From contig JAPLVL010000001.1 in NCBI GenBank assembly GCA_026397135.1, positions 12,753 to 76,752 of the forward strand: DNA of 64,000 nucleotides. The letters are read 5' to 3'. This stretch comes from Candidatus Berkelbacteria bacterium (GTDB taxonomy: Bacteria; Patescibacteriota; UBA1384; XYA2-FULL-43-10; 1-14-0-10-43-13). This document shows, piece by piece, positions 6,886 to 62,975 of this stretch. Position numbers and translations under genes: made by a program. The notes beneath the pieces are model-generated. The model saw only the letters and a program-made list of their open reading frames with translations. It was not told the origin of the DNA and searched no databases. Each line of letters starts with the position of its first letter. Within the stretch, counting starts at the first letter, position 1.

Positions 6886-7256
6886 ATAGTCATTCTGAGC
6901 CGATCTAGCTTGGAGGCGAAGAATCTAGCGAAGCGCAAAATGTTTGTTTACATTATCACAAACTATAAAAATAATGTTTTCTATATTGGCGTCACGAATA
7001 ATCTGACAAGACGAATATATGAACACAAAAATAAGTTATTTAGCAATTCCTTTTCCAGTAGATACAACTTATACAAATTAATTTGGTTCGAGGAGTTCAA
7101 TACTGCAATTGAAGCAATTACCGCTGAGAAAAAAAGGGATGGAAACGAGAAAGAAAAATTGAGATGATCAAGAAAACAAATCCCAATTTTCAGGAAATTG
7201 AATCTTATTAGTTTACGCTTCGCTAGATCCTTCGCAAGAACACTCAGGATGACTAT
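6886..7256. mobile_element. GIY-YIG gene-carrying element bounded by ~45-bp imperfect terminal inverted repeats, inserted between hydD and hydA
   Basis: Left end atagtcattctgagccgatctagcttggaggcgaagaatctagcgaagcg (~6886-6935). The reverse complement of the right end (~7216-7256) is atagtcatcctgagtgttcttgcgaaggatctagcgaagcgt. The termini share ATAGTCATYCTGAG and GCGAAGRATCTAGCGAAGCG. Confidence 0.6.
6940..7167 (+). CDS. GIY-YIG (URI-domain) nuclease superfamily protein, COG2827-like
   Basis: MFVYIITNYKNNVFYIGVTNNLTRRIYEHKN has the GIY...YIG...R...EH signature. The track ORF begins at 6910, but the ATG at 6940 follows the left inverted repeat directly. Confidence 0.65.
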   Translation: MFVYIITNYKNNVFYIGVTNNLTRRIYEHKNKLFSNSFSSRYNLYKLIWFEEFNTAIEAITAEKKRDGNEKEKLR

Positions 7257-10390: not shown

Positions 10391-10570
10391 GTCATCCTGA
10401 GGAATCGAAGGACCCATTCGGCTACGCTCAGCAGGTTCTAGAGCATGTGACCTGGGCTCGCAAAAAATGCGCCACGCTAGATTCCCATACTTACCGGTCA
10501 TCGACTCCAAGGTCGCTCAGACTCGAGGAGCAGGCAGGTTCGCCTTCAAGCATCATCTGCCCAGAATGAC
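10391..10570. repeat. Miniature (~180 bp, no ORF) copy of the GTCATYCTGAG-terminated inverted-repeat element, in a GC-rich intergenic region
   Basis: Plus-strand gtcatcctgagg at ~10391 and cccagaatgac (reverse complement of gtcattctggg) at ~10560. An internal cgctagattc is shared with the termini of the GIY-YIG element. Confidence 0.5.
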
Positions 10571-13924: not shown

Positions 13925-13965
13925 TTAATTCTTACTGCTTACTTCTTAATCCTTGCTACTTATTC
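13925..13965. repeat. Heptamer-periodic CTTAAT/CTTACT-type intercistronic repeat
   Basis: ttaattcttactgcttacttcttaatccttgctacttattc, the same family as at 23598, 34238 and 47490. Confidence 0.5.
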
Positions 13966-16515
13966 GTACCCAAATTTCTTGATGAACCAAACCTTGACTA
14001 TTTGAACCAAAAATATATATACAGCGGCCAACCCCAGAATAATCAGGAAAAAGAGTGCTGGTAGCGGCGTGAAGCCAAACCACCTAGCCAAAACAGTGTA
14101 GGGGATAATCGCCCCGACAAAAATAACTGCGATTAATGTATAGAGCAAATATTTGCTCGCTCTGCTCTGGATAAGAGGGATTTTCTTGGTTCGGATAATC
14201 AGGACGACCAGAGTTTGGGTCAAGAGTGACTCAACAAACCAACCAGTGCGAAAGAGTGGAGGCGTGGCGCGAAAGACATACCACATAATACCGAAGGTAG
14301 CAAAATCAAAGAGCGAACTAACTGGGCCGATCGTCCACATAAATTCCTTGATGAAGTTAACATCCCACGGTCGCGGCTTCTGTAAGTCTTCTGCGTCAAC
14401 ATTATCAAGCGGCAGGGCTACCTGGGACAAATCATAGAGAAAATTGTTGAGCAGTACCTGCGGCGGCAACATCGGCAGAAATGGTAGGAGAATACTGGCA
14501 CCAGTCATACTGATCATATTTCCTAAGTTAGAGCTCGCTCCCATTTTGATGTACTTAATCACATTGACAAAGGTCTTCCTGCCCTCGATAACGCAATCAC
14601 ATAGAACTCTGAGATCCTTTTCCAATAGGATAATCGCGGCCGTTTCCTTGGCAATATCCATACCAGTGTTGACCGAAATCCCAACATCAGCCGACTTCAA
14701 GGCTGGTGCATCATTGACTCCATCACCAAGGTAACCGACAACATGACCATTCGACTGGAGCGCTTTGATAATTTTTTCCTTTTGCAAAGGCGTCAGCCTG
14801 ACAAAAACGTTTGCCTTTGCCACCAGCTCTCGCAGGACATGTTCGCTCGCGCTGCTAATCTCATTGCCATTTACGATACCGCTGATCGAAAAATTAACTT
14901 CGTTACAAATTTTCCTGGTCACCATTTCGTTGTCGCCTGAAAGAATCTTGAGAGATACTCCCAAGCCTGCCAAGCTCGTAATAGTATCGCTAACATCAGG
15001 TTTGGGCGGATCGAGGAAGGTTACAAATCCCTGGAAAACCAAATCAGATTCGTCTTCAAATTGAAGCTTGGTTTTGCTACGAATCTTCTTGGTCGCTATT
15101 GCCAAAACACGAAAACCTTCGCGGCTGAGCGATTCATATAGAGATATAATCTTTTCCTTTGATTTCTTGGAAAGAGGTAGAGCGACCTCTTTCAGCGAGA
15201 AATGGCTTGATTTGGCAATTATTTCCTCCGGCGCTCCCTTTGCGACCAAGAGATCCTTGCCAGCACGACGCAACACGACCGACATCATTCGCCTTTCAAA
15301 ATCGTAGGGCAGTTCATCAATTTTCTCGTAATGAGACGTTTCAATTTTTTGATGCTTTAGAATCGCTTGATCCAAAACATTTTTCAAACCGGTTTCAAAA
15401 TGACTATTCAAATATGCATAACGAAAAATCGAGATGTCTTCCCTACCCTTAGCGTCGCAATATTTAATCAGAGCGATACTGTCGAGTGTCAGCGTGCCCG
15501 TCTTGTCGGTACAGAGGATATCCATCGCACCGAAATTTTGGATCGAATCCAGCTTTTTGACAATTATTTTTTTCTTCTCCATCTGCATCGCGCCGCGGGA
15601 GAGATTGACCGTCACAATCATCGGCAACATCTCAGGTGCCAAGCCAACTGCTACCGCCAAGGAAAATAATAACGCATCGACAATGTTACCCTTGAAAATC
15701 GCGTTAAAGAAGAAGATAAATGCTGCCAAGATGATAATCAAACGAATCATCAGCCAGGTGTAGGATTTAATACCTTTTTCGAAGGCCGTCTCAACTCCGA
15801 CTTTGGAAATATCTTCACTCAACATTCCAAACTGAGTTCCCTTGCCGATTGCTAAGACAACTCCGATTCCGGTGCCTCCGACAACACTTGAGCCCATGAA
15901 AATAATATTATCGGAGTCTAAAATATCGTCACTTTTAATTTCGCTTGCCCATGAATCTTTGATCACCGGGAAAGATTCGCCGTTTAGGGACGACTGATTA
16001 AGATACAGACGATTGGCTGAAATCAGCCTAATATCAGCTGGAACCATATCCCCAACCCCAAGCGCGACCAGGTCACCTGGCACCAATTCCTCCAGATTTG
16101 TCGTCCTTTCGTGGCCATCACGAATTACCTTGACTTTGATTTTGACTCTCTCGGCTAGTTTCTGAGCATTTCGGTTGGCTCGATATTCCTGAACAAAAGA
16201 AAGGATCACACTCAAAACAGCCAGAGCAATCACAATAATTGAGTTTATTTGTTCACCGAAATAGAAAGAAACCCCAGCCACCACAAAGAGAGTGATAACT
16301 AGAGGGTTAGCAAACTTAGACAAGAGCTGAACAACTGGCCCATATTTCTGAGCCGCAATTTTGTTGGCACCATAAAAACGCTGGCGGCGGCGGACTTCCC
16401 GCTCCGACAAACCTTTTCTGCCTGTTTTGTATTGCTGCAAAGCTTTCTCCGGAGCAAGACGACTAATTTCAAAAACAAGGCTTTGGGTTACGACCTGATT
16501 TTTCATTCCCTCCAT
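13960..16515 (-). CDS. mgtA: P-type ATPase, MgtA-like (Mg2+-importing) cation transporter
   Basis: 851 aa. Phosphorylation motif CTDKTGTLT, hinge GDGVNDAPAL, and an MgtA-like N-terminal cytoplasmic region. Confidence 0.8.
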   Translation of the reverse strand: MEGMKNQVVTQSLVFEISRLAPEKALQQYKTGRKGLSEREVRRRQRFYGANKIAAQKYGPVVQLLSKFANPLVITLFVVAGVSFYFGEQINSIIVIALAVLSVILSFVQEYRANRNAQKLAERVKIKVKVIRDGHERTTNLEELVPGDLVALGVGDMVPADIRLISANRLYLNQSSLNGESFPVIKDSWASEIKSDDILDSDNIIFMGSSVVGGTGIGVVLAIGKGTQFGMLSEDISKVGVETAFEKGIKSYTWLMIRLIIILAAFIFFFNAIFKGNIVDALLFSLAVAVGLAPEMLPMIVTVNLSRGAMQMEKKKIIVKKLDSIQNFGAMDILCTDKTGTLTLDSIALIKYCDAKGREDISIFRYAYLNSHFETGLKNVLDQAILKHQKIETSHYEKIDELPYDFERRMMSVVLRRAGKDLLVAKGAPEEIIAKSSHFSLKEVALPLSKKSKEKIISLYESLSREGFRVLAIATKKIRSKTKLQFEDESDLVFQGFVTFLDPPKPDVSDTITSLAGLGVSLKILSGDNEMVTRKICNEVNFSISGIVNGNEISSASEHVLRELVAKANVFVRLTPLQKEKIIKALQSNGHVVGYLGDGVNDAPALKSADVGISVNTGMDIAKETAAIILLEKDLRVLCDCVIEGRKTFVNVIKYIKMGASSNLGNMISMTGASILLPFLPMLPPQVLLNNFLYDLSQVALPLDNVDAEDLQKPRPWDVNFIKEFMWTIGPVSSLFDFATFGIMWYVFRATPPLFRTGWFVESLLTQTLVVLIIRTKKIPLIQSRASKYLLYTLIAVIFVGAIIPYTVLARWFGFTPLPALFFLIILGLAAVYIFLVQIVKVWFIKKFGYE

Positions 16516-18797: not shown

Positions 18798-19823
18798 TCA
18801 TTTTCTCTTGTTTTCATTATACAATTCTATTAGCTCTTTGGCTAGTTTGTTCGAATTGTGAAAAAGAGGATTCACTTCATCAATCACATCTGCCAAAATA
18901 ATCTTGATACCCTCAATCTCAGGTTCAAGAGTCGTAATATTGTTGATCTCGCCAAGCTTAGCTTCATCAGACGAAGTTCGAATAATTTTGCTATTGACCA
19001 AAACATAATCAAATAATTTTCGTCCGCCGTAACTTTTGATCTCTCTAATATGATCATCAATCGTAAAATTTCTTGTCTGGGTTCGCTCTGTCGAACAGTT
19101 GGCAACATAGACCCGCAAAGCTGTTTTGTTTTTCGCGATCGCCTCTCTAATACCATGAATCAAGAGATTGGGCACAAGACTACCGTACAGGCTACCAGGA
19201 CCAAGCACGATCAGGTCAGCAGACAAAATTGCTTCCTCTGCTTTCTTATAAGCCTTAACTTTGGGTTTATTTAGACTTATTCGCTTAATCTTCTTCAGTT
19301 CCTTGTCCAAATGGGATTCCCCCCGACAAATCGTATTGTCAGCATATTCGATCACAAGATCGATATTGGCCAAAGTCGAGGGCAAGACGCGACCAGCTGT
19401 CTGAAAAATTTCACTCGTGACCTCGATCGCTCGTTCGAAAGAACCGAGGTAATCAGTCAATCCAGTAATCCAAATATTGCCGAGAGTGTGGCCACCAAAT
19501 GTTTTCTTCTTTGCATCGAAACGATGTTCAAATATTTTGGCGATCAAGTCTTCATCGTAAGCCAGAGCCGAAATACATTTTCGAATATCCCCTGGAGCAA
19601 CCATATCAAAATCCTGACGAATTTCTCCAGTCGAGCCACCCGCATCAGCCACCGTCACTATCGCCGAAATATCACTCGAGTATGCCTTGAGTCCACGCAA
19701 AAGATTGGCCAGCCCAGTGCCGCCGCCAATGACAGCGATCTTGACTACGCCTCCCGCATTGAACCGTGGATCTGTCGGTGCGTAGCGCAACCATTTCCAC
19801 CAAGTTTTGATAATATTTGACAT
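18798..19823 (-). CDS. YvcK/UPF0052 family (CofD-like, gluconeogenesis factor) protein
   Basis: 341 aa. VKIAVIGGGTGLANLLRGLK...VTVADAGGSTG is typical of the family. Confidence 0.8.
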   Translation of the reverse strand: MSNIIKTWWKWLRYAPTDPRFNAGGVVKIAVIGGGTGLANLLRGLKAYSSDISAIVTVADAGGSTGEIRQDFDMVAPGDIRKCISALAYDEDLIAKIFEHRFDAKKKTFGGHTLGNIWITGLTDYLGSFERAIEVTSEIFQTAGRVLPSTLANIDLVIEYADNTICRGESHLDKELKKIKRISLNKPKVKAYKKAEEAILSADLIVLGPGSLYGSLVPNLLIHGIREAIAKNKTALRVYVANCSTERTQTRNFTIDDHIREIKSYGGRKLFDYVLVNSKIIRTSSDEAKLGEINNITTLEPEIEGIKIILADVIDEVNPLFHNSNKLAKELIELYNENKRK

Positions 19824-20008: not shown

Positions 20009-21406
20009 TTAATTTTCAATCATCCCCTCGCGATGCAGTTTGCGGTAGAACGAAATTGCAAATCTATGCGCTTCATCCCGAGTCGCAATACAGACATTTT
20101 GAAGAGAGATATTGCCGGCAAAATATTTGGCGACTTCAGAATTGGCAAAATGAAAGTCGTTCTTCTGTCTCTTGGGTCCTTTGGAGATAGAGACAAGCGG
20201 TATTTGTAACTCAAAATCACTCAAAACTTCCTTTGCCACCCGCAATTGCATCTCTCCTCCATCAATTACAATTAAATCTGGTTTTGGCCAATCATTCCGA
20301 AACCTCCGCTCCAGAACCTGCTTCAACCGAAACAGATCATTATTGTCATTTCGACCCGTCTGCACGGCAGGCAGGCTCGACGAAGTCGGTGGAGAAATCT
20401 GGAGTGAAGTGTCATCCTGATCTTGTCGAAGGATCTCATCCTTTGCGGAAAATCTATCAACCCCAGGAACATCGCTCGAGATGACAGAATTATTAATTTT
20501 GAACTTTCTGTACTCATCAGAGGCTTTTCTTCCGTCAACAAATACGACCATTGAGCCAACAACATATTCATCCCCAATATTAGCAATGTCGTAGCACTCA
20601 ATCCGTTTGAATAATATTTTATTACTATCAAAAACGTCATCGCGAAGTCCGATCACTACTTCAGAGATATGTTGCAGGGCATACAATTTATTACGAACAA
20701 TGGCCGCTTCTTCAAATTTCTCTTTTTTTGAAAAACGTGTCATTTCCTTCTCGAGATCGCGAATTATCTCCTGCTTTTTACCACGCAAGAACGCTTTCAA
20801 ATATTTAATATTTTTATTGTAATTTTCCGCACTAATACTACCAACACAAGGTGCCGTACAAATTTTTATATCTCCATAAATGCACGATCGACCCTTTTTG
20901 GCGGCTGAACTATATTTCGTCTTTGTACAATCACGAAAAGGAAAAATTTTGCGAAGATATCGTATCGATTTCTTAAGCAACAATCCTGCAGGGTAAGGTC
21001 CGAAATAGTCAGCCGACTTGTCCGAAAAATCAACATTCTTAACCCGAACCAGCTCAAGGACGGGAAATGCTGTTTTTGTAATTTTCTTGGCTATCTTAAT
21101 AACCAAGAAGGATTTATCGTCCTTTAGTCTCACGTTGTACTTCGGCTTCAATTTGTTGATCAGCTCAGCCTCAAGCAAAACCGCTTCAATCTCTGACCCA
21201 GTTTCGATATATTTAATATCAAAAGCCTTTTCTACCATTTGCTCAATCGCTGGTCCACGGCCCAACTCTTTCAGGAAATATTGCTTCAGGCGATTCTGCA
21301 AGTTTTTCGCTTTACCCACATACAAAATCCCTCCCTTTTCATCAAGGAAGCGATAAACACCCGGCTTTTTGGGCAAATCTTTAATTTTGTCTTTTGAATT
21401 TATCAT
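20009..21406 (-). CDS. uvrC: Excinuclease ABC subunit C (UvrC), apparently lacking the C-terminal (HhH)2 domain
   Basis: N-terminal GIY-YIG (KPGVYRFLDEKGGILYVGKAKNLQNRLKQYF) and a C-terminal RNase H-like region ending RDEAHRFAISFYRKL. Track ORF runs to 21505; likely start MINSKDK (~21406). The protein stops ~12 aa after AHRFAI. Confidence 0.8.
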   Translation of the reverse strand: MINSKDKIKDLPKKPGVYRFLDEKGGILYVGKAKNLQNRLKQYFLKELGRGPAIEQMVEKAFDIKYIETGSEIEAVLLEAELINKLKPKYNVRLKDDKSFLVIKIAKKITKTAFPVLELVRVKNVDFSDKSADYFGPYPAGLLLKKSIRYLRKIFPFRDCTKTKYSSAAKKGRSCIYGDIKICTAPCVGSISAENYNKNIKYLKAFLRGKKQEIIRDLEKEMTRFSKKEKFEEAAIVRNKLYALQHISEVVIGLRDDVFDSNKILFKRIECYDIANIGDEYVVGSMVVFVDGRKASDEYRKFKINNSVISSDVPGVDRFSAKDEILRQDQDDTSLQISPPTSSSLPAVQTGRNDNNDLFRLKQVLERRFRNDWPKPDLIVIDGGEMQLRVAKEVLSDFELQIPLVSISKGPKRQKNDFHFANSEVAKYFAGNISLQNVCIATRDEAHRFAISFYRKLHREGMIEN

Positions 21407-23597: not shown

Positions 23598-23660
23598 ATT
23601 CTTAATTCTTACTGCTTAATTCTGAATTCTTAATCCTGACTCCTGACTCCTGAAATAATT
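23598..23660. repeat. Heptamer-periodic intercistronic repeat (cttaattcttactgcttaattctgaattcttaatcctgactcctgactcctga)
   Basis: Between the frr end and the rseP start. The minus-strand sense reads TCAGGAGTCAGGAGTCAGGATTAAGAATTCAGAATTAAGCAGTAAGAATTAAGAA, i.e. SD-like AGGAG/AGGAT plus TAA stops. Confidence 0.55.
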
Positions 23661-27557: not shown

Positions 27558-28599
27558 TTTTTTGATGAATTTATCACAAACGAATAAAAAACTATTTGAG
27601 TTATTTAAGTCAGCCAAATCACCAAATCCAGAGCTTGATGCTTCTATAATTCTGGAATTTGTTTTGAAGATCAAAAGGGCAGAGGCACTCACCCACCCCA
27701 AGCTAATTCTCAAGGAGAGCCAAACTGCCAAGATTTTCAAACTCGCGAAAAGACGCTTAATTGGTGAACCTATCGCCTACCTCACTAACCACAAAGAATT
27801 TTTTGGGTATGATTTTTTCGTAAACAAAAATGTCCTTATCCCCCGCCCCGAGAGTGAATGGCTAATTGAGCATTCGCTCGAGCTTATAAAGTCCAAGGTC
27901 CAAAAAGTTGAAGGCAGATTTCATATTCTTGATCTCGGCACCGGTTCCGGCTGCCTAATCATATCGCTAGTGAGTCAGTTAATCAGCGAGCCAGCGACTG
28001 GGCTATTTAATTTTTTCGCGAGCGATGTTTCGAGCAAAGCCATCGTAGTTGCCAAGAAAAATAGCAAAACTTTACTTAGCCGTCATTCTGAAAGAAGTGA
28101 AGAGTCCTATAAAGGTGAGGGGATCCTTCGCCATGCTCAGAATGACACAATCAAATTTATTCATTCTAGCCTCTTCTCCAACCATCTACTTCGCAAGAAA
28201 TTTGATCTCATTATCGCCAATCTCCCCTATGTGCCCATCACCGATTATCATCTCGACTCTTCGACACTTTCGTCGAAGTTGGAGAGATCTTCTACTGAAG
28301 AAAATTATATAAAATTGCAAGATCTCTCGACTCCACTTCGTTCCACTCGAGATGACAATGGTATTGCATTCGAGCCAGCCTCCGCGATTTTTGCACAAGA
28401 CAACGGAGCCGAGATCATCAAAATATTTTTATCCGAATCGCTAAAATATTTAGCCAAGAACGGAGTCATCTTAATCGAACTTGATCCTCGCAATGCAATC
28501 GAACTGGAGAAATTTTCCAGAAAAACCTATCCGAACGCCAAAATAAAACTCGAAAAAGATCTGGCTGGGCTTGATCGGTATCTCTCGATAGAAAACTAA
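27550..28599 (+). CDS. prmC: Release-factor glutamine N5-methyltransferase (PrmC/HemK) with a large internal insertion
   Basis: 349 aa. SAM-binding [15 protein letters not shown] and catalytic IANLPYVP (NPPY variant), with ~90 extra residues between them. Overlaps prfA by 8 nt. Confidence 0.8.
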
Positions 28600-34237: not shown

Positions 34238-34310
34238 GAATTAAGAATTAAGAATTAAGAATTAAGTAACATTTTACTTACTGCTTAATCCTTACTGCTT
34301 ACTACTGAAT
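34238..34310. repeat. Heptamer-periodic intercistronic repeat (attaagaattaagaattaagaattaag…cttactgcttaatccttactgcttact)
   Basis: Between the gatA end and the ppiB start; same family as at 23598 and 47490. Confidence 0.55.
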
Positions 34311-35828
34311 TTCCGGTTTTCTCTTGTGCCAATCAGTCGACTGCTGGAAAGTGTGACCCGCCATCAAAATTGTCTCTTCACTCCACATCGGACCGATCAA
34401 CTGAAGACCAACTGGCAAACTTTTGTCATCTTTTTCGACGAAGCCAGCTGGAATGCTGATTGCCGGCAAGCCAGCCGGATTGACCGGCACTGTCATAATA
34501 TCCGAAAGATACATCGAGAGTGGATCGGCAGATTTCTCACCAAATTTGAATGGCAAAGTTGGTGAAACAGGAGTCGCCAAAAGATCAACTTCCTCAAATA
34601 TCTTTTCAAATTCAGCTTTGATCAAAGTTCGGACCCTCTGTGCCTTTTTGTAATAGGCGTCATAATATCCAGCCGACAAGACATAGCTCCCAAGCATAAT
34701 TCGGCGTTTAGTTTCGGCACCAAAACCCTCTTCCCTGCTCAAATTATAAACATCCTCTAGACTTTCAGCTTTAGACATTTGGCTTTCGGATTTCGATTTG
34801 AGGACAGAATGTCCAAACCGAATCCCATCATATCTTGCTAAATTCGAGCTAACTTCCGCAGGCATCAATATATAGTAAACTGCCAAGGCATAATGTACCA
34901 TCGGCAAAGATACTGGGACTATTTTTGCTCCCAATTTTTCAAATTCAGATATTGCATTTCGGACAACAGCCTCAACTTCACTATCCAGTCCTTCACCAAA
35001 AAACTCAGCAGAAACCCCAATTCTCATTGACTTTAGACTTTTCACCTTTAGCTTTTCGCAATAATTTGGAATTGGTTTGTCAGAACTAGTAGAGTCAAAT
35101 TTGTCGTAGCCAGAAATGATATTGAGCAAGATGGCTGCGTCTTCAACAGTCTTGGTCATTGGCCCAGCCTGGTCCAAAGAAGATGCCATTGCGATCGTGC
35201 CATAGCGCGAAACTCTGCCGTATGTTGGTTTCAAACCCGTAATTGAGCAAAGGCTGGCTGGCTGACGAATTGATCCACCGGTATCTGTCCCTATAGCTGC
35301 AACACAGAGATCTGCCGCTACCGCAGCCGCTGAACCACCTGAGGACCCACCAGGAATCCGGTCCAAGTCCCAAGGATTTCGAGTTGTGGAATCAAAATCA
35401 GTCGCAGTATTATAAGCAGAAGTCTCTGTCGATGAACCCATTGCGAATTGATCCAAGTTCGTCTTGCCAATCAAAACTGCGCCGGCTTCCCAGAGCTTTC
35501 GAGTCACAGTCGATTCATAAATCGGTACAAAATCATTCAAAATATTGGAAGCTGCCGTTGTCCTAACCCCTTTGGTCAAGAATAAGTCTTTGACCGCAAC
35601 CGGAATTCCATCAATTTCCGAGAGAGTCGCACCGTTTTTGCGACGCAGATCTGATTCTCTTGCCATTTCAAGCGCTTTTTCCTTGCAGAGAGTAATATAT
35701 GCACCAACTTTCGAATCAATCTCTTCAATGCGCTCGAAAATCGCTTCAGTTAATCTTTCTGAAGTAATCTCACCACTGGCGAGTTTCTCTGAAGCTTCTT
35801 TGATTGTAAATGAATACAGTTCGTTCAT
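34302..35828 (-). CDS. gatA: Glutamyl-tRNA(Gln) amidotransferase subunit A
   Basis: Amidase signature (GGSSGGSAAAVAA…). Track ORF extends to 35924; likely start MNELYSFTIKEA (~35828). Confidence 0.9.
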   Translation of the reverse strand: MNELYSFTIKEASEKLASGEITSERLTEAIFERIEEIDSKVGAYITLCKEKALEMARESDLRRKNGATLSEIDGIPVAVKDLFLTKGVRTTAASNILNDFVPIYESTVTRKLWEAGAVLIGKTNLDQFAMGSSTETSAYNTATDFDSTTRNPWDLDRIPGGSSGGSAAAVAADLCVAAIGTDTGGSIRQPASLCSITGLKPTYGRVSRYGTIAMASSLDQAGPMTKTVEDAAILLNIISGYDKFDSTSSDKPIPNYCEKLKVKSLKSMRIGVSAEFFGEGLDSEVEAVVRNAISEFEKLGAKIVPVSLPMVHYALAVYYILMPAEVSSNLARYDGIRFGHSVLKSKSESQMSKAESLEDVYNLSREEGFGAETKRRIMLGSYVLSAGYYDAYYKKAQRVRTLIKAEFEKIFEEVDLLATPVSPTLPFKFGEKSADPLSMYLSDIMTVPVNPAGLPAISIPAGFVEKDDKSLPVGLQLIGPMWSEETILMAGHTFQQSTDWHKRKPEIQ

Positions 35829-47489: not shown

Positions 47490-47555
47490 ATTACTAGCCG
47501 CCTACTTGCTTAATGCTTAATACTGAATCCTTAATCCTGAACCCTTAATCCTTAT
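47490..47555. repeat. Heptamer-periodic intercistronic repeat (cttaatgcttaatactgaatccttaatcctgaacccttaatcctta)
   Basis: Between ftsE and ftsX. Confidence 0.55.
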
Positions 47556-50092: not shown

Positions 50093-52912
50093 TTATTTTC
50101 CACAGCATTTCTTGTATTTCTTGCCGCTTCCACATGGACAAGGATCATTGCGGCCCGGTTTGGCCACGTGTTTCACCTGTGAAGCAGGGCCAGTCGCCGC
50201 CGATTCTTTCATCCGATCGAAGACAGTCTTCTTTTGCGACAACATTACGCTTTCGCTATCAGCCCTGTTTGTATTAGATTCAGCCATCATCTTCTGTGCC
50301 ATTGCTAAATCTTCTTTTTCTTTGTCAAATCCGCCAACTTTATCAACCACTGGTTCAGAATAAAGAAGAGGTTTTGATTCTTCAGAAACTGGCTTCGGTG
50401 CCTGATTGTTTATCTTTATTTCAATTTTGAAGATTGTGCGGGCAACCATAGCTTCAATATTCTGTAAAAGCGCCTCAAAAAGTCGGTACGCTTCCTGTTT
50501 GTACTCAACCAATGGATCACGCTGACCGTAACCCTGCAAGCCAATTCCGGTACGCAATTCATCCATCGTTGTCAGGTGTTCAATCCAGAGCATATCGATT
50601 GTCCGAAGATAAACCATCTTTTCAACCTCTCTGGTGACATTTGATCCGTACTTTTGCTCTCGATCATCATAAATTTTTCTTACAAATTGTTTCAATTCGA
50701 CAATATCAAGTGAAGGCAGGATAATCTCGCCGAAAATCGCTTTGAGTTCCATTCTCAATTTATCCTGATCTTCGATATAGAGATTGCAGATTTTTTCAAT
50801 TTCCTCTTCCAATATCTCCAAAATCTCATCCTTCAGCGAAAACTCTTCTTCCTCACTCCTGACTTCTGACTCCTGACTTCTGGCTTCTGAGTCTTGGCTT
50901 CTGGCTTCTGAGTCCTGACTTCTGACTTCCGACTTCCCGTCCTCCTCTTGTCGAATGGATTTGCTTTCAGATTCTAATACTCGACGGCGTTTTCGGTAAA
51001 TAACCTCACGGTGCTTATTCATCACATCATCATACTCAACCAGATGTTTGCGGATATCAAAATTGTATCCTTCAACCCTCTTCTGTGCCGATTCAATCGA
51101 GTTGGAGATCATCCGATTTTCAATCGGCATCTCATCGGGCAGACCCAGAGAGTTCATAATATTCTTTAGCCGATCACCACCAAAAATCCGCATCAAATCG
51201 TCATCCATCGAAACAAAAAACTGAGATGAGCCGGCGTCACCTTGGCGACCAGAACGACCGCGCAACTGATTATCAATACGACGCGCTTCGTGTCGCTCAG
51301 TTCCAAGCACATGCAGACCACCCAATTCCCGCACCCCTTCACCAAGTTTAATATCAGTACCACGACCAGCCATATTAGTCGCTACCGTGACAGCACCAAC
51401 CAAACCGGCCTTGGAGATTATTTTTGCTTCGCGTTCATGATTCTTCGCGTTCAATACCTCATGTTTTATCCCAGCTCTCTTCAGAGCTTTTGACAGAATT
51501 TCATTCTTGGACACAGAAACAGTACCAATCAAAATCGGTTGGCCCTTGTCGTGGCGTATTCGAACATCTTCGGTAATAGCAGTAATTTTCGCTTCCTCAG
51601 TTTTGTAGATCCGATCGGGAACATCAAGCCGAGCAACCGGTTTGTTTGTTGGAATTTCAACAACATCAAGCTTATAAATTTTGAAAAATTCCTCCGCTTC
51701 GGTCGCGGCAGTACCGGTCATACCTGACAATTTCTTATACATCCGGAAAAGATTTTGGAACGAAATCGTGGCCAAGGTTTGTGACTCATTTTTGACTTCA
51801 ACATTTTCCTTCGCCTCAATCGCTTGGTGCAGACCTTCAGAATACCGGCGGCCAACCATCAACCGTCCTGTAAACTCATCTACAATCATTATTTCGCCGT
51901 CCTGGACTACATAATCTCGATCTTTCTGGAAAAGAGCATGCGCCTTAAGTGCCTGTTCTAGATGGTGAACCATCGTAATACCACCAACTTCGTAAATATT
52001 GTCGATATGGAGCATTTTCTCCATCTCGTGAATTCCTTTATCGGTCAGTGTGACAGTCTTTTCCTTCTCGTCAATAACATAATCATCTGTTTCAGTAAGC
52101 CGAGGAACCAAGGCGGCAAATTGTTGATACATCCCGCCCGATTCTTCAGCCGGAGCTGAAATAATAAGCGGCGTCCTGGCTTCGTCAATCAATATCGAGT
52201 CCACCTCATCAACAATTGCAAAATATAGCTCCCGCTGGACGCAAAGTTCTAGATTTGGCGCCATATTATCGCGCAAATAGTCGAACCCAAATTCGTTGTT
52301 TGTACCATAAGTAATGTCAGCATGATATGCATCGCGCCGACTACATGGTTCCAGGTTCAATCCCTCACACTCCGAATAGTGTTTGTAATCATGGCTTTTT
52401 TTGAAACGATAAGTCTCTTGATTGCTCTGAATGATACCAGTCGAAAGTCCCAAAAAGTCAAAAACTTGTCCCATTCCCTCGCCCTGATGTTTCGAGAGAT
52501 AATCATTTACCGTTACCAAGTGAGCGCCGCGACCGGCTAATGAATTTAAATATAGAGGGAGTGTCGCTACGATTGTCTTACCTTCACCAGTTTTCATCTC
52601 GGCGATTTTGCCTTGGTGAAGCACGAGGCCACCAATTATTTGTACGTCAAAATGGCGCTCTCCCCAGACACGCTTCATCGCTTCTCGCAATACAGCAAAG
52701 GCCTCAGGCGCGATCTGCTCAAGTATCTCGTCTTCGGAAATCTCTGATTCTCTGTCTTTGATTCGATTCCGAAACTCAGTCGTCTTCTGTTTCAACTCCT
52801 CGCCAGAGAGATTACTGACCTCCTTTTCGAAATCACTGATTTCCCTAACCTGACGCTCCAAAGCGCCAATCACTCTTTTGCTCGGATTGTAAAATTTATC
52901 AATTAAACCCAT
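50093..52912 (-). CDS. secA: Preprotein translocase ATPase SecA, with an in-frame heptad-repeat insertion
   Basis: DEAD-like motor motifs and C-terminal zinc finger CPCGSGKKYKKCCG. Likely start MGLIDKFYNPS (~52912; track ORF extends to 52978). Insertion EVRSQDSEARSQDSEARSQESEVRSEEEE. Confidence 0.9.
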   Translation of the reverse strand: MGLIDKFYNPSKRVIGALERQVREISDFEKEVSNLSGEELKQKTTEFRNRIKDRESEISEDEILEQIAPEAFAVLREAMKRVWGERHFDVQIIGGLVLHQGKIAEMKTGEGKTIVATLPLYLNSLAGRGAHLVTVNDYLSKHQGEGMGQVFDFLGLSTGIIQSNQETYRFKKSHDYKHYSECEGLNLEPCSRRDAYHADITYGTNNEFGFDYLRDNMAPNLELCVQRELYFAIVDEVDSILIDEARTPLIISAPAEESGGMYQQFAALVPRLTETDDYVIDEKEKTVTLTDKGIHEMEKMLHIDNIYEVGGITMVHHLEQALKAHALFQKDRDYVVQDGEIMIVDEFTGRLMVGRRYSEGLHQAIEAKENVEVKNESQTLATISFQNLFRMYKKLSGMTGTAATEAEEFFKIYKLDVVEIPTNKPVARLDVPDRIYKTEEAKITAITEDVRIRHDKGQPILIGTVSVSKNEILSKALKRAGIKHEVLNAKNHEREAKIISKAGLVGAVTVATNMAGRGTDIKLGEGVRELGGLHVLGTERHEARRIDNQLRGRSGRQGDAGSSQFFVSMDDDLMRIFGGDRLKNIMNSLGLPDEMPIENRMISNSIESAQKRVEGYNFDIRKHLVEYDDVMNKHREVIYRKRRRVLESESKSIRQEEDGKSEVRSQDSEARSQDSEARSQESEVRSEEEEFSLKDEILEILEEEIEKICNLYIEDQDKLRMELKAIFGEIILPSLDIVELKQFVRKIYDDREQKYGSNVTREVEKMVYLRTIDMLWIEHLTTMDELRTGIGLQGYGQRDPLVEYKQEAYRLFEALLQNIEAMVARTIFKIEIKINNQAPKPVSEESKPLLYSEPVVDKVGGFDKEKEDLAMAQKMMAESNTNRADSESVMLSQKKTVFDRMKESAATGPASQVKHVAKPGRNDPCPCGSGKKYKKCCGK
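50845..50935. repeat. 7-nt-periodic tandem repeat inside the secA coding sequence (ctgacttctgactcctgacttctggcttctgagtc…)
   Basis: Read directly: ~13 heptamer units, in frame (21 nt = 7 aa). Same heptamer family as the intercistronic repeats, e.g. ctgactcctgactcctga at 23640. Confidence 0.6.
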
Positions 52913-58389: not shown

Positions 58390-58683
58390 ATGAAAGATTT
58401 AGATAAGGATCTCCTAAAATCACTTTTCGAAGATGAAAAATACGGTGAAGCCCGTCAAGTTCTCGATCAATATTTGGCTCAGGATTTGAGCGATGCAGAG
58501 AAGGGAGAGGCATATGTCGAAGCAGTAATGGAATACATGACAATGGCCAACGAAATTAATACTCGCTACCTCTCCTCACTCCAAGAGATTGTTGCTTCTC
58601 TGAAAGAATTAGAGGAAAAGAAAGAAGAATACATCAAAAAAATCGATGTCTCTGGGCTGAAAAGCAAAATCGATCAACTCTAG
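58390..58683 (+). CDS. Hypothetical acidic helical protein
   Basis: 97 aa, 13-nt gap after the previous gene. Confidence 0.4.
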   Translation: MKDLDKDLLKSLFEDEKYGEARQVLDQYLAQDLSDAEKGEAYVEAVMEYMTMANEINTRYLSSLQEIVASLKELEEKKEEYIKKIDVSGLKSKIDQL

Positions 58684-58705
58684 ACCAATACAACTGGATA
58701 TATGA

Positions 58706-58738
58706 AAAAATGCCCGAGACGGGCATTTTTTCATATCG
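58706..58738. terminator. Bidirectional rho-independent terminator between convergent genes (A6-hairpin-T6)
   Basis: aaaaaatgcccgagacgggcatttttt. Confidence 0.65.
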
Positions 58739-58785
58739 TTTAAAAGCTGACTTGCTCACCTGCTTACCTGCATACTTGCAACTAT

Positions 58786-60078
58786 TTATCTTCTAATTTC
58801 CGAAAATCCGGTATATTTCTGCAGAACCTCTGGTATTTGAATCGAGCCGTCAGACTGCTGACCGTTTTCCATGATTGCAATTATAGCACGGCTGTTCGCA
58901 ATTGCAGTACCGTTAAGCATATGGACAAAATCTTTTTTGCCAGAATCGTCAACAAATTTAATATTTAGAGCACGGGACTGATAATCAGTACAATTTGAAG
59001 TAGATGTAATTTCAGCCCAATCACCCATGCTCCCGTCTTTGTTCGGCTTGCCTGGCATCCAGGCTTCCAAATCAAAGGTGCGAATCGATGGTGCACCCAA
59101 GTCCGCCGTGCAATGATCAATGACGCGATATGGAATTTTCAAACCATCAAACAATTCTTTTTCGATTACCAACATTTCATCGTGAGCTTTTTCAGAATTT
59201 TCTGGCGTCGTATACTGAAACATTTCAATCTTCGTAAACTGATGAACTCTGAAGGTACCTTTGGAAAATTTGGAGTAACTGCCAGCTTCTGTACGAAAAC
59301 AATGCGAGACAGCTATATATTTCTTTGGTAATTCAACAGCTTTAAATAACTCATCTTTGTGATAACCGCCCATCGTGATTTCGGCAGTAGCAATCAAACT
59401 CAAATCAGAGTTTTCAATGTTATAAATCTGAGTCGCTTCGCCCCGTGGGTTGAAACCCATGCAAGCCAAAATTTCCCGTTTGGCCAGATCAGGAGTAGTG
59501 AAAGGCGTAAAACCGTGTTTCGTTGCCACCGACAGCGCATACTGGATTAGAGCAAATTCGAGAACAGCTAGTTCATTTTTGAGATAATAAAATTTAGCAC
59601 CAGAGACTTTTGCTGCTCGTTCAAAATCGATTAGATCTAACTTTTCCGCTAACTGAACATGATCAAGCGGCTTAAATTCAAATTTGGTTGGCTTGTATTT
59701 CTGTTCTACGACCGGATTATCGTCTTCGTCATCACTAACCTTTACCGACTTGTGAGTCAAATTTGGCACCTGAAAAAGCAATGCGGTGAATTCTTCCTCA
59801 AACGGAAGCAAACTTTTTTCGGCCTCGGCAATTTCTGCCCCGACTTGTTTCATCTCCACAATTTCTTCAGGCGTCGGCTTGTTCTTGGAAACCTTGTTGC
59901 GTTGAGCCCTCAAATCTTCAATTTTTGCCTCCAGCTCCCTTTTGCTCTTGTCGAGGAGAAGCAAACGGTCAATATCAACATCAGAAAGTCGAATCTTGCA
60001 ATTTTCCCTAATCAGCTCCGCATTCTCACGAATAAATTTAATATCAAGCATATTTTTCCTCTGTCGTTCCGGATTCAA
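58786..60078 (-). CDS. serS: Seryl-tRNA synthetase
   Basis: Class II aaRS motifs and N-terminal coiled-coil arm. The track starts at a TTG; more likely start is the ATG 9 codons in (~60050), giving MLDIKFIRENAELIR, preceded by AGGA. Confidence 0.9.
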   Translation of the reverse strand: MNPERQRKNMLDIKFIRENAELIRENCKIRLSDVDIDRLLLLDKSKRELEAKIEDLRAQRNKVSKNKPTPEEIVEMKQVGAEIAEAEKSLLPFEEEFTALLFQVPNLTHKSVKVSDDEDDNPVVEQKYKPTKFEFKPLDHVQLAEKLDLIDFERAAKVSGAKFYYLKNELAVLEFALIQYALSVATKHGFTPFTTPDLAKREILACMGFNPRGEATQIYNIENSDLSLIATAEITMGGYHKDELFKAVELPKKYIAVSHCFRTEAGSYSKFSKGTFRVHQFTKIEMFQYTTPENSEKAHDEMLVIEKELFDGLKIPYRVIDHCTADLGAPSIRTFDLEAWMPGKPNKDGSMGDWAEITSTSNCTDYQSRALNIKFVDDSGKKDFVHMLNGTAIANSRAIIAIMENGQQSDGSIQIPEVLQKYTGFSEIRR

Positions 60079-60109
60079 TCCGGAAATTATTTAATTCTTT
60101 TTTGGATCC
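60040..60109. repeat. Direct repeat copy 1 (70 bp; serS promoter/RBS/first codons), pairs with 61114..61183
   Basis: aatatcaagcatatttttcctct [16 divergent nt] tccggaaattatttaattcttttttggatcc: 54/70 identical to copy 2. Confidence 0.7.
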
Positions 60110-60117
60110 TGAATCAA

Positions 60118-60302
60118 GCTCAGGATGACAAAATATTTTTACCTATTTGCTGGCTCACTATTTCTTATCACCTAATAGTTTTTTAATTTTAGTGGCAGGC
60201 AAAAAGTTCTCTCCTGTAACTACATTTTGCCCTGTTTTTTGCTCAAGCGCAATCCTCGCATCCTTGGCAACGCTGTCACTTTCTAATTTTGTCATTGCGA
60301 GC
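60118..60302. repeat. Miniature inverted-repeat unit (~185 bp, no ORF) with gctcaggatgacaaaat / attttgtcattgcgagc termini, adjacent to GIY-YIG gene 2
   Basis: Termini are reverse-complementary (14/17 match). A hairpin cccactcagagtggg lies just beyond, at ~60305-60319. Confidence 0.55.
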
Positions 60303-60332
60303 CATCCCACTCAGAGTGGGAGGCGCGGCAAT

Positions 60333-60632
60333 CTATCCAATAATTTCCTGATACAAATCCAGAAAATTGGGATTATCCTTGGTTATTAAATCGATTTTCT
60401 TCTGCCTTGACCCTGCTTTAATTTGTTTTTCTCGATTGATAGCAGAATTTGAATCGCTATATAATTCGTAATAAACTAGCTTCGTTACATTATATCTTCC
60501 GGTGAAACTTTCGACAACCTTGTTTTTATGTTCGTAAACTCTACGGATAATGTTATTTGTTACTCCAGTATAAATTACCGTATTGGTATGATTTGTCATC
60601 AGATAAACATAGTAATATTGTTCCAATTTCAT
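60333..60632 (-). CDS. GIY-YIG (URI-domain) nuclease superfamily protein, second copy
   Basis: 99 aa. YYYVYLMTNHTNTVIYTGVTNNIIRRVYEHKN, paralogous to the 6940..7167 protein (YIITNYKNNVFYIGVTNNLTRRIYEHKN). Confidence 0.7.
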   Translation of the reverse strand: MKLEQYYYVYLMTNHTNTVIYTGVTNNIIRRVYEHKNKVVESFTGRYNVTKLVYYELYSDSNSAINREKQIKAGSRQKKIDLITKDNPNFLDLYQEIIG

Positions 60633-61067
60633 TTATAAGATTGCCACGGCCTGCGGCCTCGCAATGACAGAAAAGGTAATTTCCTGCATTCTTTCATACC
60701 CAACCTTTGCAAGCCAAAGTTTGATCGGCTCGGCTTTCTTGCTCGGGACTAATTGAACCAGTCTTAGAATCGTCTCAACATCCGCCACATCGGTTTTATA
60801 AAATTTGCCATCAGCAGACATCATTTTCAGTTTGTCACAATTTGTGACTAACTGACTTCCTTCCTTTTTCAGACGATTCTTTAATGTTGTCCAATAGCTC
60901 TGGGCCTTCTTGAAATCCAGCTGTTCAGTCAACGCCGCGACGATATCAATCACCGAAAAATACCACGCCTCTTTTTTCTCATCATAGAGCCTGCGGATCT
61001 TAAAATTCTCAAATATTGCTAAACTGTTTTGATCTTGTTCCATATTTCTATTCAATGTTTTTCCCAT
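60633..61067 (-). CDS. Bro-N domain (phage antirepressor-like DNA-binding) protein
   Basis: 144 aa. FENFKIRRLYDEKKEAWYFSVIDIVAALT matches the Bro-N core (F..IR…g..WF.a.DVa.aL). Its stop abuts the GIY-YIG start. Confidence 0.6.
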   Translation of the reverse strand: MGKTLNRNMEQDQNSLAIFENFKIRRLYDEKKEAWYFSVIDIVAALTEQLDFKKAQSYWTTLKNRLKKEGSQLVTNCDKLKMMSADGKFYKTDVADVETILRLVQLVPSKKAEPIKLWLAKVGYERMQEITFSVIARPQAVAIL

Positions 61068-61113
61068 CTTGTCGCCATTTCAGCTTCGTTTTAGGAAGCG
61101 TCCCCGATTTTCT

Positions 61114-61183
61114 AATATCAAGCATATTTTTCCTCTATCACTCTGGACTTGCTCCGGAAATTATTTAATTCTTTTTTGGATCC
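61114..61183. repeat. Direct repeat copy 2
   Basis: See copy 1. On the minus strand it supplies AGGAAAAATATGCTTGATATT (the serS-like RBS + MLDI), continuing into a 25-codon leader ORF that overlaps the Bro-N start. Confidence 0.7.
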
Positions 61184-61282
61184 AAATCCGCCAGCTGGCG
61201 AAAAATTCAGAGTCTGGCTTCGACTTGATAAATAATAGCAAAGTTACTTATTCACTGATTTACATATTTACTTATCTGCTTC

Positions 61283-62676
61283 CTATTTCTCCGGTTTCAT
61301 CAGTGGGAACATTTGGGCTTCACGGGCGGGAAGATCGACTAAAAATGAAAATAATCTTTCGGAGAAACCAAAGCCGGAAGTTGGGGGCATACCATATTCG
61401 AGCGCCTCGACGAACTCCTGATCATGCATCTGTGCCTCCGCATCTCCTGCTTCACGCAGTTTTGCCTGCTCCTTGAATCGATCGGCCTGGTCGATCGGAT
61501 CATTTAGCTCCGAGTAGCCATTGCCCATCTCGGAACCAGCCAAAATGACCTGGAATCGTTCGACGACACGTGGATCATCTGCTTTTCGCTTGGCTAGTGG
61601 GGAAACTTCAACCGGATGATTGATCAGAAAGACTGGCCCCGCAATCTTCTTGCGCAGAACTTTCCAGATCGCATCGATCAAGCGACCACGGCGATCAGCC
61701 GGGCTGAATTTAACATTTAATTCTCTCAGCTTAGACTTCAAATCTTCCTCTGAAGCTTCGAGCACATCTATATCGAAATGTTCTTTGATCGTCTTGGTAT
61801 AGTCAATTTTCTCCCAGTCTTTTTCCAAATCGACATCATGCTCACCTATTTTGAATTTCAAAGTCCCGAAGGTCTCCTTGGTAATATATTTATACATTTC
61901 CTCGACCAATTTCATCGAGTCCTCATAATTGGCATATGCCCAATAGAATTCCATTTGGGAATAATCTTGAAGATGCTCTCTCGAGACTCCCTCGTTTCGA
62001 AACTGTCGACCGATCTCAAAGGTTTTTTCAAACCCGCCGACCATCAAACGTTTCTGCCAGAGTTCTCCCATCGAAATACGGAGAAAAACATCAATATCGA
62101 AGGCGTTGTGATGAGTAATGAAGGGATTAGCGTCAGCACCGCCAGCACAATTTTCTAGTACCGGTGTCTCAACTTCCAAGAAACCTTTTTCGGTCAAGAA
62201 ATTACGAGTTGACTGCCAAAATTTGGCCTTTTTGTAAACCATTTCTCGGGCAACGGCCTGGTAGCTTTGGCTAGCAATTTAACGCCATGGCCTTCGATCG
62301 AAAGCTCGCCGGCATTAGTTACGAAAATAGTACCGGAAATTTGCAAAAAGTCACCAACTTCGATGAGAGTCGCAATTTCAAAATTTTTCTCATCCAGAAG
62401 GTCGGCCCGCAAAACAGCTTGCAGTTTCCCTGATTCATCGACAATATCTAGGAAGAAAAGTTTGCCATGTCCGCGCTTGGCGATAATCCGCCCCGCAATT
62501 GTAATTTCTTTTTTCGATTCGACAAGCTCATCCTGCTGTCCTCTCACTTCGGCAAGAAGAGTGTCCCGCTCTGACTTCGAAGGATAAGCAGAAACACCGA
62601 GGTTTTCCAAAAGATGCAGTTTTGCAATTCTGTTTTCGATTAGTTCTTTTTCGGTCGCGCCGAGCTCTTGTGACAT
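61283..62676 (-). CDS. lysS: Lysyl-tRNA synthetase (class II), interrupted by a frameshift near an A5 run at ~62215-62235
   Basis: ORF 62194..62676 is the N-terminal anticodon-binding OB domain (…LPEKW). ORF 61283..62242 is the catalytic domain (…RNFLTEKGFLEVETP…, motifs 1-3). They overlap by 49 nt in different frames, around acaaaaagg. Confidence 0.8.
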
Positions 62677-62840
62677 GTTATTCCTTTCAATATCTTTATC
62701 TTTTTATAACACAATTACAGAAAGAAATGAAGTTTAACATCAATTCTTCGCAATATTCCAAAAGGATGATTATATACAAGAGATTAAAACCAAATTCCTC
62801 AAAAACTTATCGAGCCATTATTTGTGTTTATTAATTAGAA

Positions 62841-62869
62841 AACGGGCAGCTCATGATGAGCTACCCGTT
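62841..62869 (-). terminator. Hairpin + T-run terminator of the 62976..63332 gene
   Basis: aacgggcagctcat gatgagctacccgtt (1 mismatch), then ttttctaatt on the minus strand. Confidence 0.45.
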
Positions 62870-62975
62870 CAAGATTTGTTTCAACAAATTGATGTAAATT
62901 ATCGCGGAGTACTATTTCCTTTCGCCTGCAAGATATACACCTAGCAATAGTCAGAATCTGTCTAGGTTCCTGAAA

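Follow-up and report, generated by a model that had tools for sequence, protein, structure and literature searches.

Within the 64-kb window of Candidatus Berkelbacteria DNA considered here (the whole stretch that was analysed, 64,000 nucleotides (nt) of a metagenome-assembled genome), the genes lysS and serS are separated by a segment that carries Bro-N and GIY-YIG coding sequences and is bounded by two copies of a 71-nt direct repeat. All the genes between 58.7 and 62.7 kb lie on the minus strand; read in that direction, lysS is followed by a spacer, repeat copy 2, a second spacer, the Bro-N open reading frame (ORF), the GIY-YIG ORF (named ssn in the following), a 50-codon ORF, repeat copy 1 and serS, with 1003 nt between the two repeats. 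For both the Bro-N and the GIY-YIG product, NCBI lists a protein of 100% identity from the same organism, encoded on a 98-kb contig. An initial annotation had described the segment as a two-gene cassette, a description that has to be given up: the Bro-N gene is split by a unit in which ssn stands between two hairpins, and its 3′ remnant is found beyond the GIY-YIG gene. The 1003 nt would then be a composite of decaying accessory DNA, illegitimately inserted at the 5′ end of serS and read through from outside, a reading to which we give an even chance.

The 71-nt direct repeat between lysS and serS

The features that frame the segment are as follows.

58786-60051, minus strand: serS, intact, 421 amino acids, ATG at 60051, Pfam domains Seryl_tRNA_N and tRNA-synt_2b
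60039-60109, minus strand: copy 1 of the direct repeat (functional leader of serS), with Shine-Dalgarno sequence AGAGGA and ATGCTTGATATTA
60067-60085, no strand assigned: central part of copy 1, TTCCGGATT-G-AATCCGGAA, a perfect palindrome with a folding energy of about -10 kcal/mol for both strands
61113-61183, minus strand: direct repeat copy 2, the upstream copy, next to the native lysS terminator
61189-61200, minus strand: terminator-like hairpin CGCCAGCTGGCG of lysS, its T-run ending after GATTT, where copy 2 starts
61283-62676, minus strand: lysS, which flanks the insertion upstream and is split between two frames (62194-62676 and 61283-62242)

Both repeats lie where they had first been placed, each being one base longer than described (60039-60109 and 61113-61183); they are identical at 63 of the 71 positions and their starts are 1074 nt apart. 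The identity initially given, 54/70, covers the perfect arms alone, the value in the same 70-nt coordinates being 62/70. The differences are indeed confined to a central span of 16 nt, only 8 positions of which differ, by 7 transitions and 1 transversion; random placement of the eight mismatches within so tight a span has a P of about 4e-5. The perfect arms on the two sides measure 24 and 31 nt, each of them occurs exactly twice in the window (0 occurrences expected), and no other long dispersed direct repeat is found in the 64 kb. Copy 1 joins a 58-nt leader to the first 13 nt of serS, the minus strand reading AGAGGAAAAAT-ATG-CTT-GAT-ATT-AAA..., and what is duplicated includes, as originally proposed, the serS ribosome-binding site (RBS) and the first four codons, plus one nucleotide. 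The palindrome that is perfect in copy 1 is degenerate in copy 2 (61141-61159), where it reaches -3.7 kcal/mol on the sense strand and, by means of a G.U pair, -7.4 kcal/mol on the plus strand. On the latter strand, antisense to serS, both copies (60067-60109 and 61142-61183) score as intrinsic-terminator-like, with a hairpin followed by ATTATTTAATTCTTTTTT; no plus-strand gene that would need such a terminator is present near either copy.

An independent assembly of run SRR20698641 in Logan contains unitigs identical to the window. One of them (L001) leads from the 31-nt arm through the centre of copy 1 into serS; the other (L002) leads from the same arm through the centre of copy 2, the cassette and a third hairpin back to the arm. 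Reads thus support each of the copies as well as the joint between copy 2 and the cassette, which answers the initial concern that the repeats might be a duplicated contig end. Because unitigs built with k=31 break at a 31-nt arm, the graph alone does not separate the integrated form from an empty site accompanied by a 1074-bp circle. The junctions that would tell these forms apart can be written down: GATTT-GGATCC...CCGGA-TTGAATCC (lysS flank, arm, centre 1, serS) for the empty site, and TTCA-GGATCC...CCGGA-GCAAGTCC (third hairpin, arm, centre 2) for the circle or a tandem array. To judge from the repeats, excision of the cassette by recombination between them is possible.

For comparison, relatives of serS were gathered from GTDB genomes and JGI metagenomes, giving 161 loci, some of which represent the same contig in both collections. 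In 52 of them lysS is upstream of serS in the same orientation, with a gap of 4-150 nt in 23, and none of the 161 carries a Bro-N or GIY-YIG gene at this site, as the placement of an insertion between the two genes had implied. Where the 3′ part of lysS is at least 70% identical to that of the window and the gap is at most 150 nt (L003, L014, L008, L114 and L090), the gaps measure 46-135 nt; the wider lysS-serS gaps of other relatives contain unrelated housekeeping-type genes. Subtraction of 1074 nt from the window would leave a spacer of 157 nt, to be compared with the 150 nt of L006. The segment thus appears to be an insertion between lysS and serS, a conclusion supported at the family level. 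Upstream of serS, 24 relatives have nothing in common with the 71-mer beyond ATGYTNGAYAT and, since the leader is not conserved among relatives, the duplication arose in this lineage. The window serS is 72% identical to that of related Patescibacteria, and the closest sequences in the GTDB and JGI scans reach 72-74%; searches for exact matches to the products of serS, lysS, ssn and Bro-N, made to find a genome of the same species, returned only the same Logan sample or nothing.

A Bro-N gene split by an Ssn-type unit

The following features lie between copy 1 and copy 2, or overlap their edges.

60104-60129, minus strand: hairpin GTCATCCTGAGCTTGATTCAGGATCC, third element of the Ssn type (SRM-C), capping the cassette, of the same type as the repeats of a second ssn in the window
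60158-60286, minus strand: 3′ remnant of the Bro-N/PDC-S13 gene (...SVAKDARIALEQKTGQNVVTGENFLP...K and stop), matching the C-termini of the full-length homologues P0067 and P0055
60310 to 60158, minus strand: 50-codon ORF downstream of the GIY-YIG ORF
60290-60334, plus strand: hairpin TGTCATTGCGAGCC...GCGGCAATCT (SRM-B), Ssn-related, inverted with respect to SRM-A and overlapping the ssn stop, -13.3 kcal/mol, z -4.5
60333-60632, minus strand: ssn, single-domain GIY-YIG protein of 99 amino acids, Ssn family (PF01541, E 2.8e-14, residues 6-79)
60638-60669, minus strand: hairpin TGTCATTGCGAGGCCGCAGGCCGTGGCAATCT (SRM-A), Ssn-related, encoding SVIARPQAVAIL, the foreign end of the Bro-N ORF; boundary drawn from the homology to L202
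60633-61043, minus strand: 5′ remnant of the Bro-N/PDC-S13 gene, 136 amino acids in the NCBI annotation, with homology to relatives only at 60676-61039 and homologues that share about 80% identity
61044-61112, minus strand: 69-nt spacer from copy 2 to the Bro-N start, carrying codons 5-25 of the leader ORF
61048-61125, minus strand: leader ORF of 25 codons (MLDIRKSGTLPKTKLKWRQDGKNIE and stop), beginning at the duplicated serS ATG and ending in TAG 4 nt before the Bro-N ATG

Full-length members of the Bro-N family are about 245-250 amino acids long and end in ...KKGG.IAKDAR.ALE.KTGK.VVTG.NFL.... The window ORF follows these homologues as far as ...KVGYERMQEIT and then turns into a tail of 12 residues that is encoded by the SRM-A hairpin. 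DNA homology to relatives is confined to 61039-60676 and, on the other side of ssn, to 60270-60225 (the latter with L163), so that the N-terminal 130 and the last 40 residues of the protein are kept while about 290 nt of the middle of the gene are replaced by the hairpin-ssn-hairpin unit of 380 nt. The PADLOC profile PDC-S13 matches the remnant with an E value of 1.3e-53 (positions 3-119 of 286) and a full-length member with 2.4e-98; a match to phrog_15286 is also found. The test of the Bro-N assignment that had been suggested at the outset, a search with Pfam PF02498, gives E 1.1e-4 and 23.1 bits, just under the cut-off of 25.6 bits that full-length homologues exceed (26-27.9 bits), and the GIY-YIG assignment stands at the value listed above. 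NCBIfam returned no match for either protein, including none to a DinD model, and none of the papers found by literature search mentions PDC-S13.

Homologues of the Bro-N protein number more than 5000. The closest (P0001-P0120) are about 70-89% identical across Patescibacteria, Omnitrophota, Elusimicrobiota, Nitrospirota and Margulisiibacteriota, and a large share of them is truncated, frameshifted or internally deleted at differing points; judged by sequence, this pattern of high identity and varied breakage fits a rapid horizontal spread accompanied by decay. Fic, AbiEi or an IS30-type transposase, or else tightly packed large ORFs, are encoded next to Bro-N homologues. A viral origin of the gene was considered and rejected, relatives being present in only 11 IMG/VR loci. 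At L163 (and also at L164-L171) a frameshifted Bro-N/PDC-S13 gene lies between the copies of a 26-nt direct repeat (2928-2953 and 3775-3800, 22/26 or 85% identical), the core of which, AAAACCTGCTATAAT, resembles an extended -10 box; its 15-nt exact core compares with a maximum of 14 in shuffled sequences. The downstream copy of that repeat stands just before the ATG of the next gene, and the upstream one is followed by an ORF of 12 codons, the TGA of which overlaps the ATG of Bro-N, an arrangement that may be a weak parallel to that of the window.

The GIY-YIG protein leads to a system described recently. SsnA is a site-specific nuclease of single-stranded DNA (ssDNA), and most Ssn homologues are flanked by hairpins, the Ssn-related motifs (SRMs), in a layout that resembles an insertion sequence (IS) (Chenal et al. 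2025, Nat Commun, PMC11893778). Those authors counted as Ssn homologues proteins with E < 1e-10 to Neisseria SsnA; the window protein is 43% identical over 90 amino acids to a 94-residue product of Neisseria gonorrhoeae (pairwise E 4e-30, tblastn E 6e-20), which is taken to be the SsnA orthologue on the strength of its length and of the eight copies of GTCATTCCCGCGnnnGCGGGAATC, i.e. the NTS hairpin sequence, within 1 kb of it. (The gonococcal sequence, L198, is NZ_CP119140.1; its comparison was possible only because PLSDB wrongly includes chromosomes of N. gonorrhoeae, 2.17 Mb long, among the plasmids.) Homologues 95-99 amino acids in length number at least 8000, and in the PDB the protein matches only weakly 1ZG2, a UPF0213 protein. 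A homing endonuclease of the I-TevI/Seg type, in which GIY-YIG is fused to a DNA-binding domain in a protein of about 200-250 amino acids, was rejected, the 99-residue protein having a single domain and the Bro-N part being separate and truncated.

On both sides ssn is flanked by inverted hairpins with an oriented GTCAT...AATC frame, and SRM-A and SRM-B fold in the register of NTS (GTC, an ATT...AAT stem, C). The published degenerate SRM pattern, HGTCWYN(0-2)YYVSBRHN(0-5)WNVSBRGN(0-2)RNCYNB, was run over the window as a regular expression and gave one unrelated match and none at the hairpins, which accordingly are variant motifs of the same architecture. Hairpins of the GTCATTGCGAG type occur in the window only as the two flanking copies, and those of the GTCATYCYGAGC type give 9 matches against 0.97 expected. 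SRM-C has near-identical counterparts at other loci of Patescibacteria (L029 and L021), and the 6 nt with which it ends, GGATCC, are also those with which copy 1 begins.

A second hairpin-ssn-hairpin unit of the same layout is present at 6886-7256, with an ssn gene (about 6940-7211, plus strand) that is 44% identical to that of the cassette, has a frameshift in an A7 run (7127-7133) and stands between imperfect inverted repeats of the GTCATTCTGAGC type, 40-49 nt long (TAGTCATYCTGAG...GAAGRATCTAGCGAAGCG). GTCAT...ATC hairpins that accompany no ORF, some of them in inverted pairs as in miniature inverted-repeat transposable elements, lie at 10391-10570, 19703-19733, 20345-20485, 28082-28146 and 28320-28356; none of these fits the published search pattern.

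A second composite of Bro-N and ssn is provided by L202 and L203, with 77% DNA identity to the window from TGTCATTGCGAGG to CTCGCAATGACAA and differing flanks. In L202 (positions 470-890 of a groundwater metagenome contig) two hairpins stand upstream of ssn and an unrelated membrane-protein gene takes the place of the Bro-N tail. The homology between the two genomes is bounded exactly by two hairpins, and the hairpin-ssn-hairpin unit is therefore a discrete block. Its upstream junction in the window is approximately that of L202 minus 24 codons, the deletion falling between similar Bro-N segments (RMQE.. and RM.GQE..), and this likeness makes it likelier that the composite spread after a single ancestral insertion than that two insertions occurred independently.

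Expression and origin of the insertion

The leader ORF exists as initially described; its overlap with the Bro-N start codon holds only for the ATG of the longest ORF (61067), homologues, the NCBI annotation and a DNA homology to L203 that begins about 12 nt upstream all support the start at 61043 instead. Copy 2 supplies AGAGGA-N5-ATG to the leader ORF, whereas Bro-N lacks a Shine-Dalgarno sequence at its start, and the Bro-N stop abuts the ssn start (TAA-ATG); coupling by re-initiation from the leader ORF to Bro-N is plausible. No sigma-70-like promoter was called on the minus strand inside either copy, the only -10-like sequence within the repeat being AATAAT, for which any -35 box would fall outside and differ between the copies. 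The duplication of the serS promoter that had first been claimed is thus unproven. In the relatives, lysS-serS gaps of 4-50 nt suggest that serS is co-transcribed with lysS, which makes read-through of the cassette plausible without a captured promoter; since the genes are co-oriented and no minus-strand terminator was called in 59900-61400, read-through transcription could occur. For the 69-nt spacer, both repeat centres and the lysS-side flank, the window and about 200 loci contain nothing that matches significantly.

The proposed insertion of decaying accessory DNA at the start of serS comprises four steps. In the first, which may be regarded as shown, a discrete unit, formed by the gene of a 99-residue Ssn-type GIY-YIG protein (a predicted ssDNA nuclease) between inverted GTCATTGCGAG...GGCAATCT hairpins, invaded a widely transferred Bro-N/PDC-S13 gene, from the middle of which some 290 nt were lost; L202 contains this composite too. 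In the second, the composite, ending in SRM-C, would have entered the lysS-serS spacer of Berkelbacteria through illegitimate recombination, be it of the staggered-break, template-switch or transformation type. The left joint would fall after nucleotide 13 of serS and the right joint at a 6-bp microhomology, GGATCC, 71 nt upstream, with about 65 nt of target being duplicated. The border of copy 2 with the spacer has no microhomology, and that of copy 1 coincides with a complete hairpin end. Because serS is essential, insertion at codon 5 is survivable only if an intact leader, RBS and start are rebuilt, which would account for the unusual length of the duplication. In the third step, transcription would read through from lysS or from a promoter in the leader, and ribosomes would translate the 25-codon MLDI... 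ORF, re-initiate 4 nt further on at the truncated Bro-N and reach ssn via TAA-ATG. In the fourth, the palindrome may have been kept perfect in the working serS leader and have decayed in the redundant copy 2, or the site may be a mutational hot spot.

Several points weigh against this account. Duplicates made in situ should begin identical, and 8 differences in 16 nt against 0 in 55 nt need a special explanation. To our knowledge, a target duplication of 65-71 nt far exceeds that of any classical transposase, and no recombinase is encoded nearby. No same-species genome that could show the empty site or the direction of the event was found in the collections searched. Flanking direct repeats were looked for at 12 other Bro-N loci and found, weakly, only at L163, so that they are not a hallmark of the family. 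Chance could explain why the 21 foreign codons in the leader ORF contain no stop, and the expression of the cassette is deduced entirely from its sequence.

The transition-rich divergence of the two copies is accounted for by the main rival, an import driven by homology, which is nevertheless unlikely, the three other alternatives considered below being less likely. A related strain would have donated a cassette already placed upstream of its own serS leader, the two copies being the alleles of donor and recipient; the import could have proceeded through a circle recombining in the leader (Campbell-type) or through a linear fragment with leader and serS homology and one illegitimate joint. With 8 of the 16 central positions retained and transitions prevailing, as counted above, the centres look like diverged homologues rather than unrelated sequence. 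Moreover, copy 2 adjoins the native lysS terminator and copy 1 the foreign SRM-C, the 24 and 31 nt of the perfect arms come close to the minimal length for RecA pairing, and the Logan unitig that begins and ends in the same 31-mer is circle-like. Allelic divergence, however, would be expected in the arms too, where none of the 55 nt differs; no leader of donor or recipient type was found, with the nearest relatives at about 72-74% serS identity; and a circle made of repeat and cassette presupposes a prior duplicated state.

A second alternative, which we consider improbable, reverses the order of events: the cassette would first have lain between the lysS terminator and the serS leader with no repeat, and the 71 nt of leader and start would later have been pasted upstream of it by templated break repair or template switching, and been kept because they provide a translation start and possibly a promoter. 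That copy 2 starts with GGATCC, which in copy 1 is part of SRM-C, suggests that the template already included the hairpin end, and the T-run of the lysS terminator is interrupted exactly where copy 2 starts; the Bro-N start, moreover, is devoid of its own Shine-Dalgarno sequence. Selection to express a truncated remnant is, on the other hand, hard to argue, the joint of copy 2 with the spacer lacks microhomology, and the 57 nt that follow copy 2 are left unaccounted for.

As a more speculative extension, and a doubtful one, the hairpin-ssn-hairpin unit may be an autonomous IS-like element that moves via ssDNA, the serS duplication being the footprint of Ssn integration or repair, and the 1074-nt cassette may be excisable as a circle and spread between Patescibacteria through the leaders of housekeeping genes.

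It is very unlikely that Bro-N, for DNA binding, and GIY-YIG, for cleavage, form a functional free-standing module akin to a homing endonuclease, with a housekeeping promoter brought along or captured. The Bro-N domain itself is intact, and in L202 a Bro-N remnant likewise adjoins ssn, in the same orientation and through a TAA-ATG junction. The Bro-N ORF, nevertheless, ends in hairpin-encoded residues and its own C-terminus lies downstream of ssn; the likeness of the window junction to that of L202 points to a single ancestral accident; Ssn proteins are self-sufficient single-domain ssDNA nucleases (PMC11893778); and hairpin-encoded tails are found in only 2 of the approximately 120 closest Bro-N homologues, which indicates that the pairing is not a general module.

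Equally hard to credit is an assembly artefact by which the cassette, in reality a separate circle or another locus, was threaded between lysS and serS via the common 31-mer: the cassette unitig of the k=31 Logan graph does start and end in this 31-mer and the adjoining lysS has a suspicious frame-breaking deletion, but the differing centres allow reads of at least 100 nt to cover an entire copy without ambiguity, a single unitig contains the joint between copy 2 and the cassette, and the 98-kb NCBI contig runs through the region.

Relation to known systems and neighbouring features

The content of the insertion is of known kinds, namely a PDC-S13/Bro-N gene in decay and an Ssn unit whose hairpins are variants, so that the insertion is instructive while being essentially an ordinary one, and no major concept is altered by these findings.

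Like the NTS-ssnA-NTS arrangement (PMC11893778), the window has a single-domain GIY-YIG protein of about 95-99 residues with inverted GTCAT...AATC hairpins on both sides and additional solo hairpins scattered through intergenic DNA. Unlike the systems of that paper, it belongs to Patescibacteria, a group not mentioned there; its hairpins (GTCATTGCGAG..., GTCATYCTGAG...) fall outside the paper's degenerate search pattern; and its unit disrupts another gene, with boundaries that exactly match those of a copy in another metagenome. The Ssn/hairpin system is thereby extended to Patescibacteria, with hairpin variants that the published pattern misses, and the position inside a disrupted gene and the boundaries shared by two genomes are sequence-level evidence that hairpin-ssn-hairpin is an insertable block. 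Such exact common boundaries argue for movement as a unit, which was only hypothesized in PMC11893778.

With PDC-S13, a candidate phage-defence system in PADLOC (Bro-N, labelled 'DNA-damage-inducible protein D' by JGI), the N-terminal 120 residues agree. Unlike the full profile, the window copy is a remnant (positions 3-119 of 286 and the last 40 residues), the full-length architecture of about 250-286 amino acids being absent, with the tail separate and the middle replaced; a role in defence is a candidate one only.

The minimal mobile or intergenic mosaic elements of Neisseria occupy fixed sites between housekeeping genes, vary in content from lineage to lineage and have hairpins of the dRS3/NTS type at the borders of their blocks. 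Accessory DNA between conserved housekeeping genes and hairpins at its borders are features that the window shares with them. The flanks differ, being in the window a 71-nt duplication of the start of the downstream gene, which exchange through flanking homology would not create.

Homology-facilitated illegitimate recombination and the merodiploids formed in transformation join foreign DNA at microhomologies and sometimes duplicate recipient sequence (PMC3240628, PMC3784515), and a mechanism of this kind is proposed for the window by analogy only. The locus would illustrate how insertion in the first codons of an essential gene is tolerated, in that a long duplication rebuilds the start and, as a by-product, offers an RBS to the incoming DNA. 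Two other classes of element were rejected, namely (i) classical IS elements or transposons, as no transposase is found among the ORFs, no inverted repeats are found at the joints of repeat and cassette, and the duplication measures 65-71 nt; and (ii) integron cassettes, the defining features of which are absent.

As to the neighbouring genes, the spacer of 99 nt between lysS and copy 2 ends in the hairpin CGCCAGCTGGCG followed by GATTT, and in L098 the same hairpin is found downstream of lysS with a full T-run. The frame of lysS breaks near 62242-62260, where PLPEKW is joined directly to VYKKAKFW; the stretch that forms residues 145-167 in the L003 orthologue, RHGIQDEETRLRKRYLEFAINHE, is absent. 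The break is either a true pseudogenization of an essential gene or an assembly error, and the exact 319-residue product has no record in other assemblies.

Downstream of serS, a perfect 17-bp inverted repeat at 58700-58736 (ATATGAAAAAATGCCCG/CGGGCATTTTTTCATAT), between serS and the convergent genes of the plus strand, makes up a bidirectional terminator. A search of 58500-62900 against Rfam gave no match other than a sub-threshold Thr_leader on this terminator, and no known serS leader RNA such as a T-box. Intergenic arrays with a period of 7 nt (CTTAATC, CTGACTC and CTTGCTCAC-like) are found at 13924-13979, 23601-23657, 34270-34325, 47509-47550, 50852-50936 and 58743-58781. One such heptamer array lies directly after the serS stop codon, and comparable arrays are found upstream of serS in relatives (e.g. 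L006, L090, L091 and L126).

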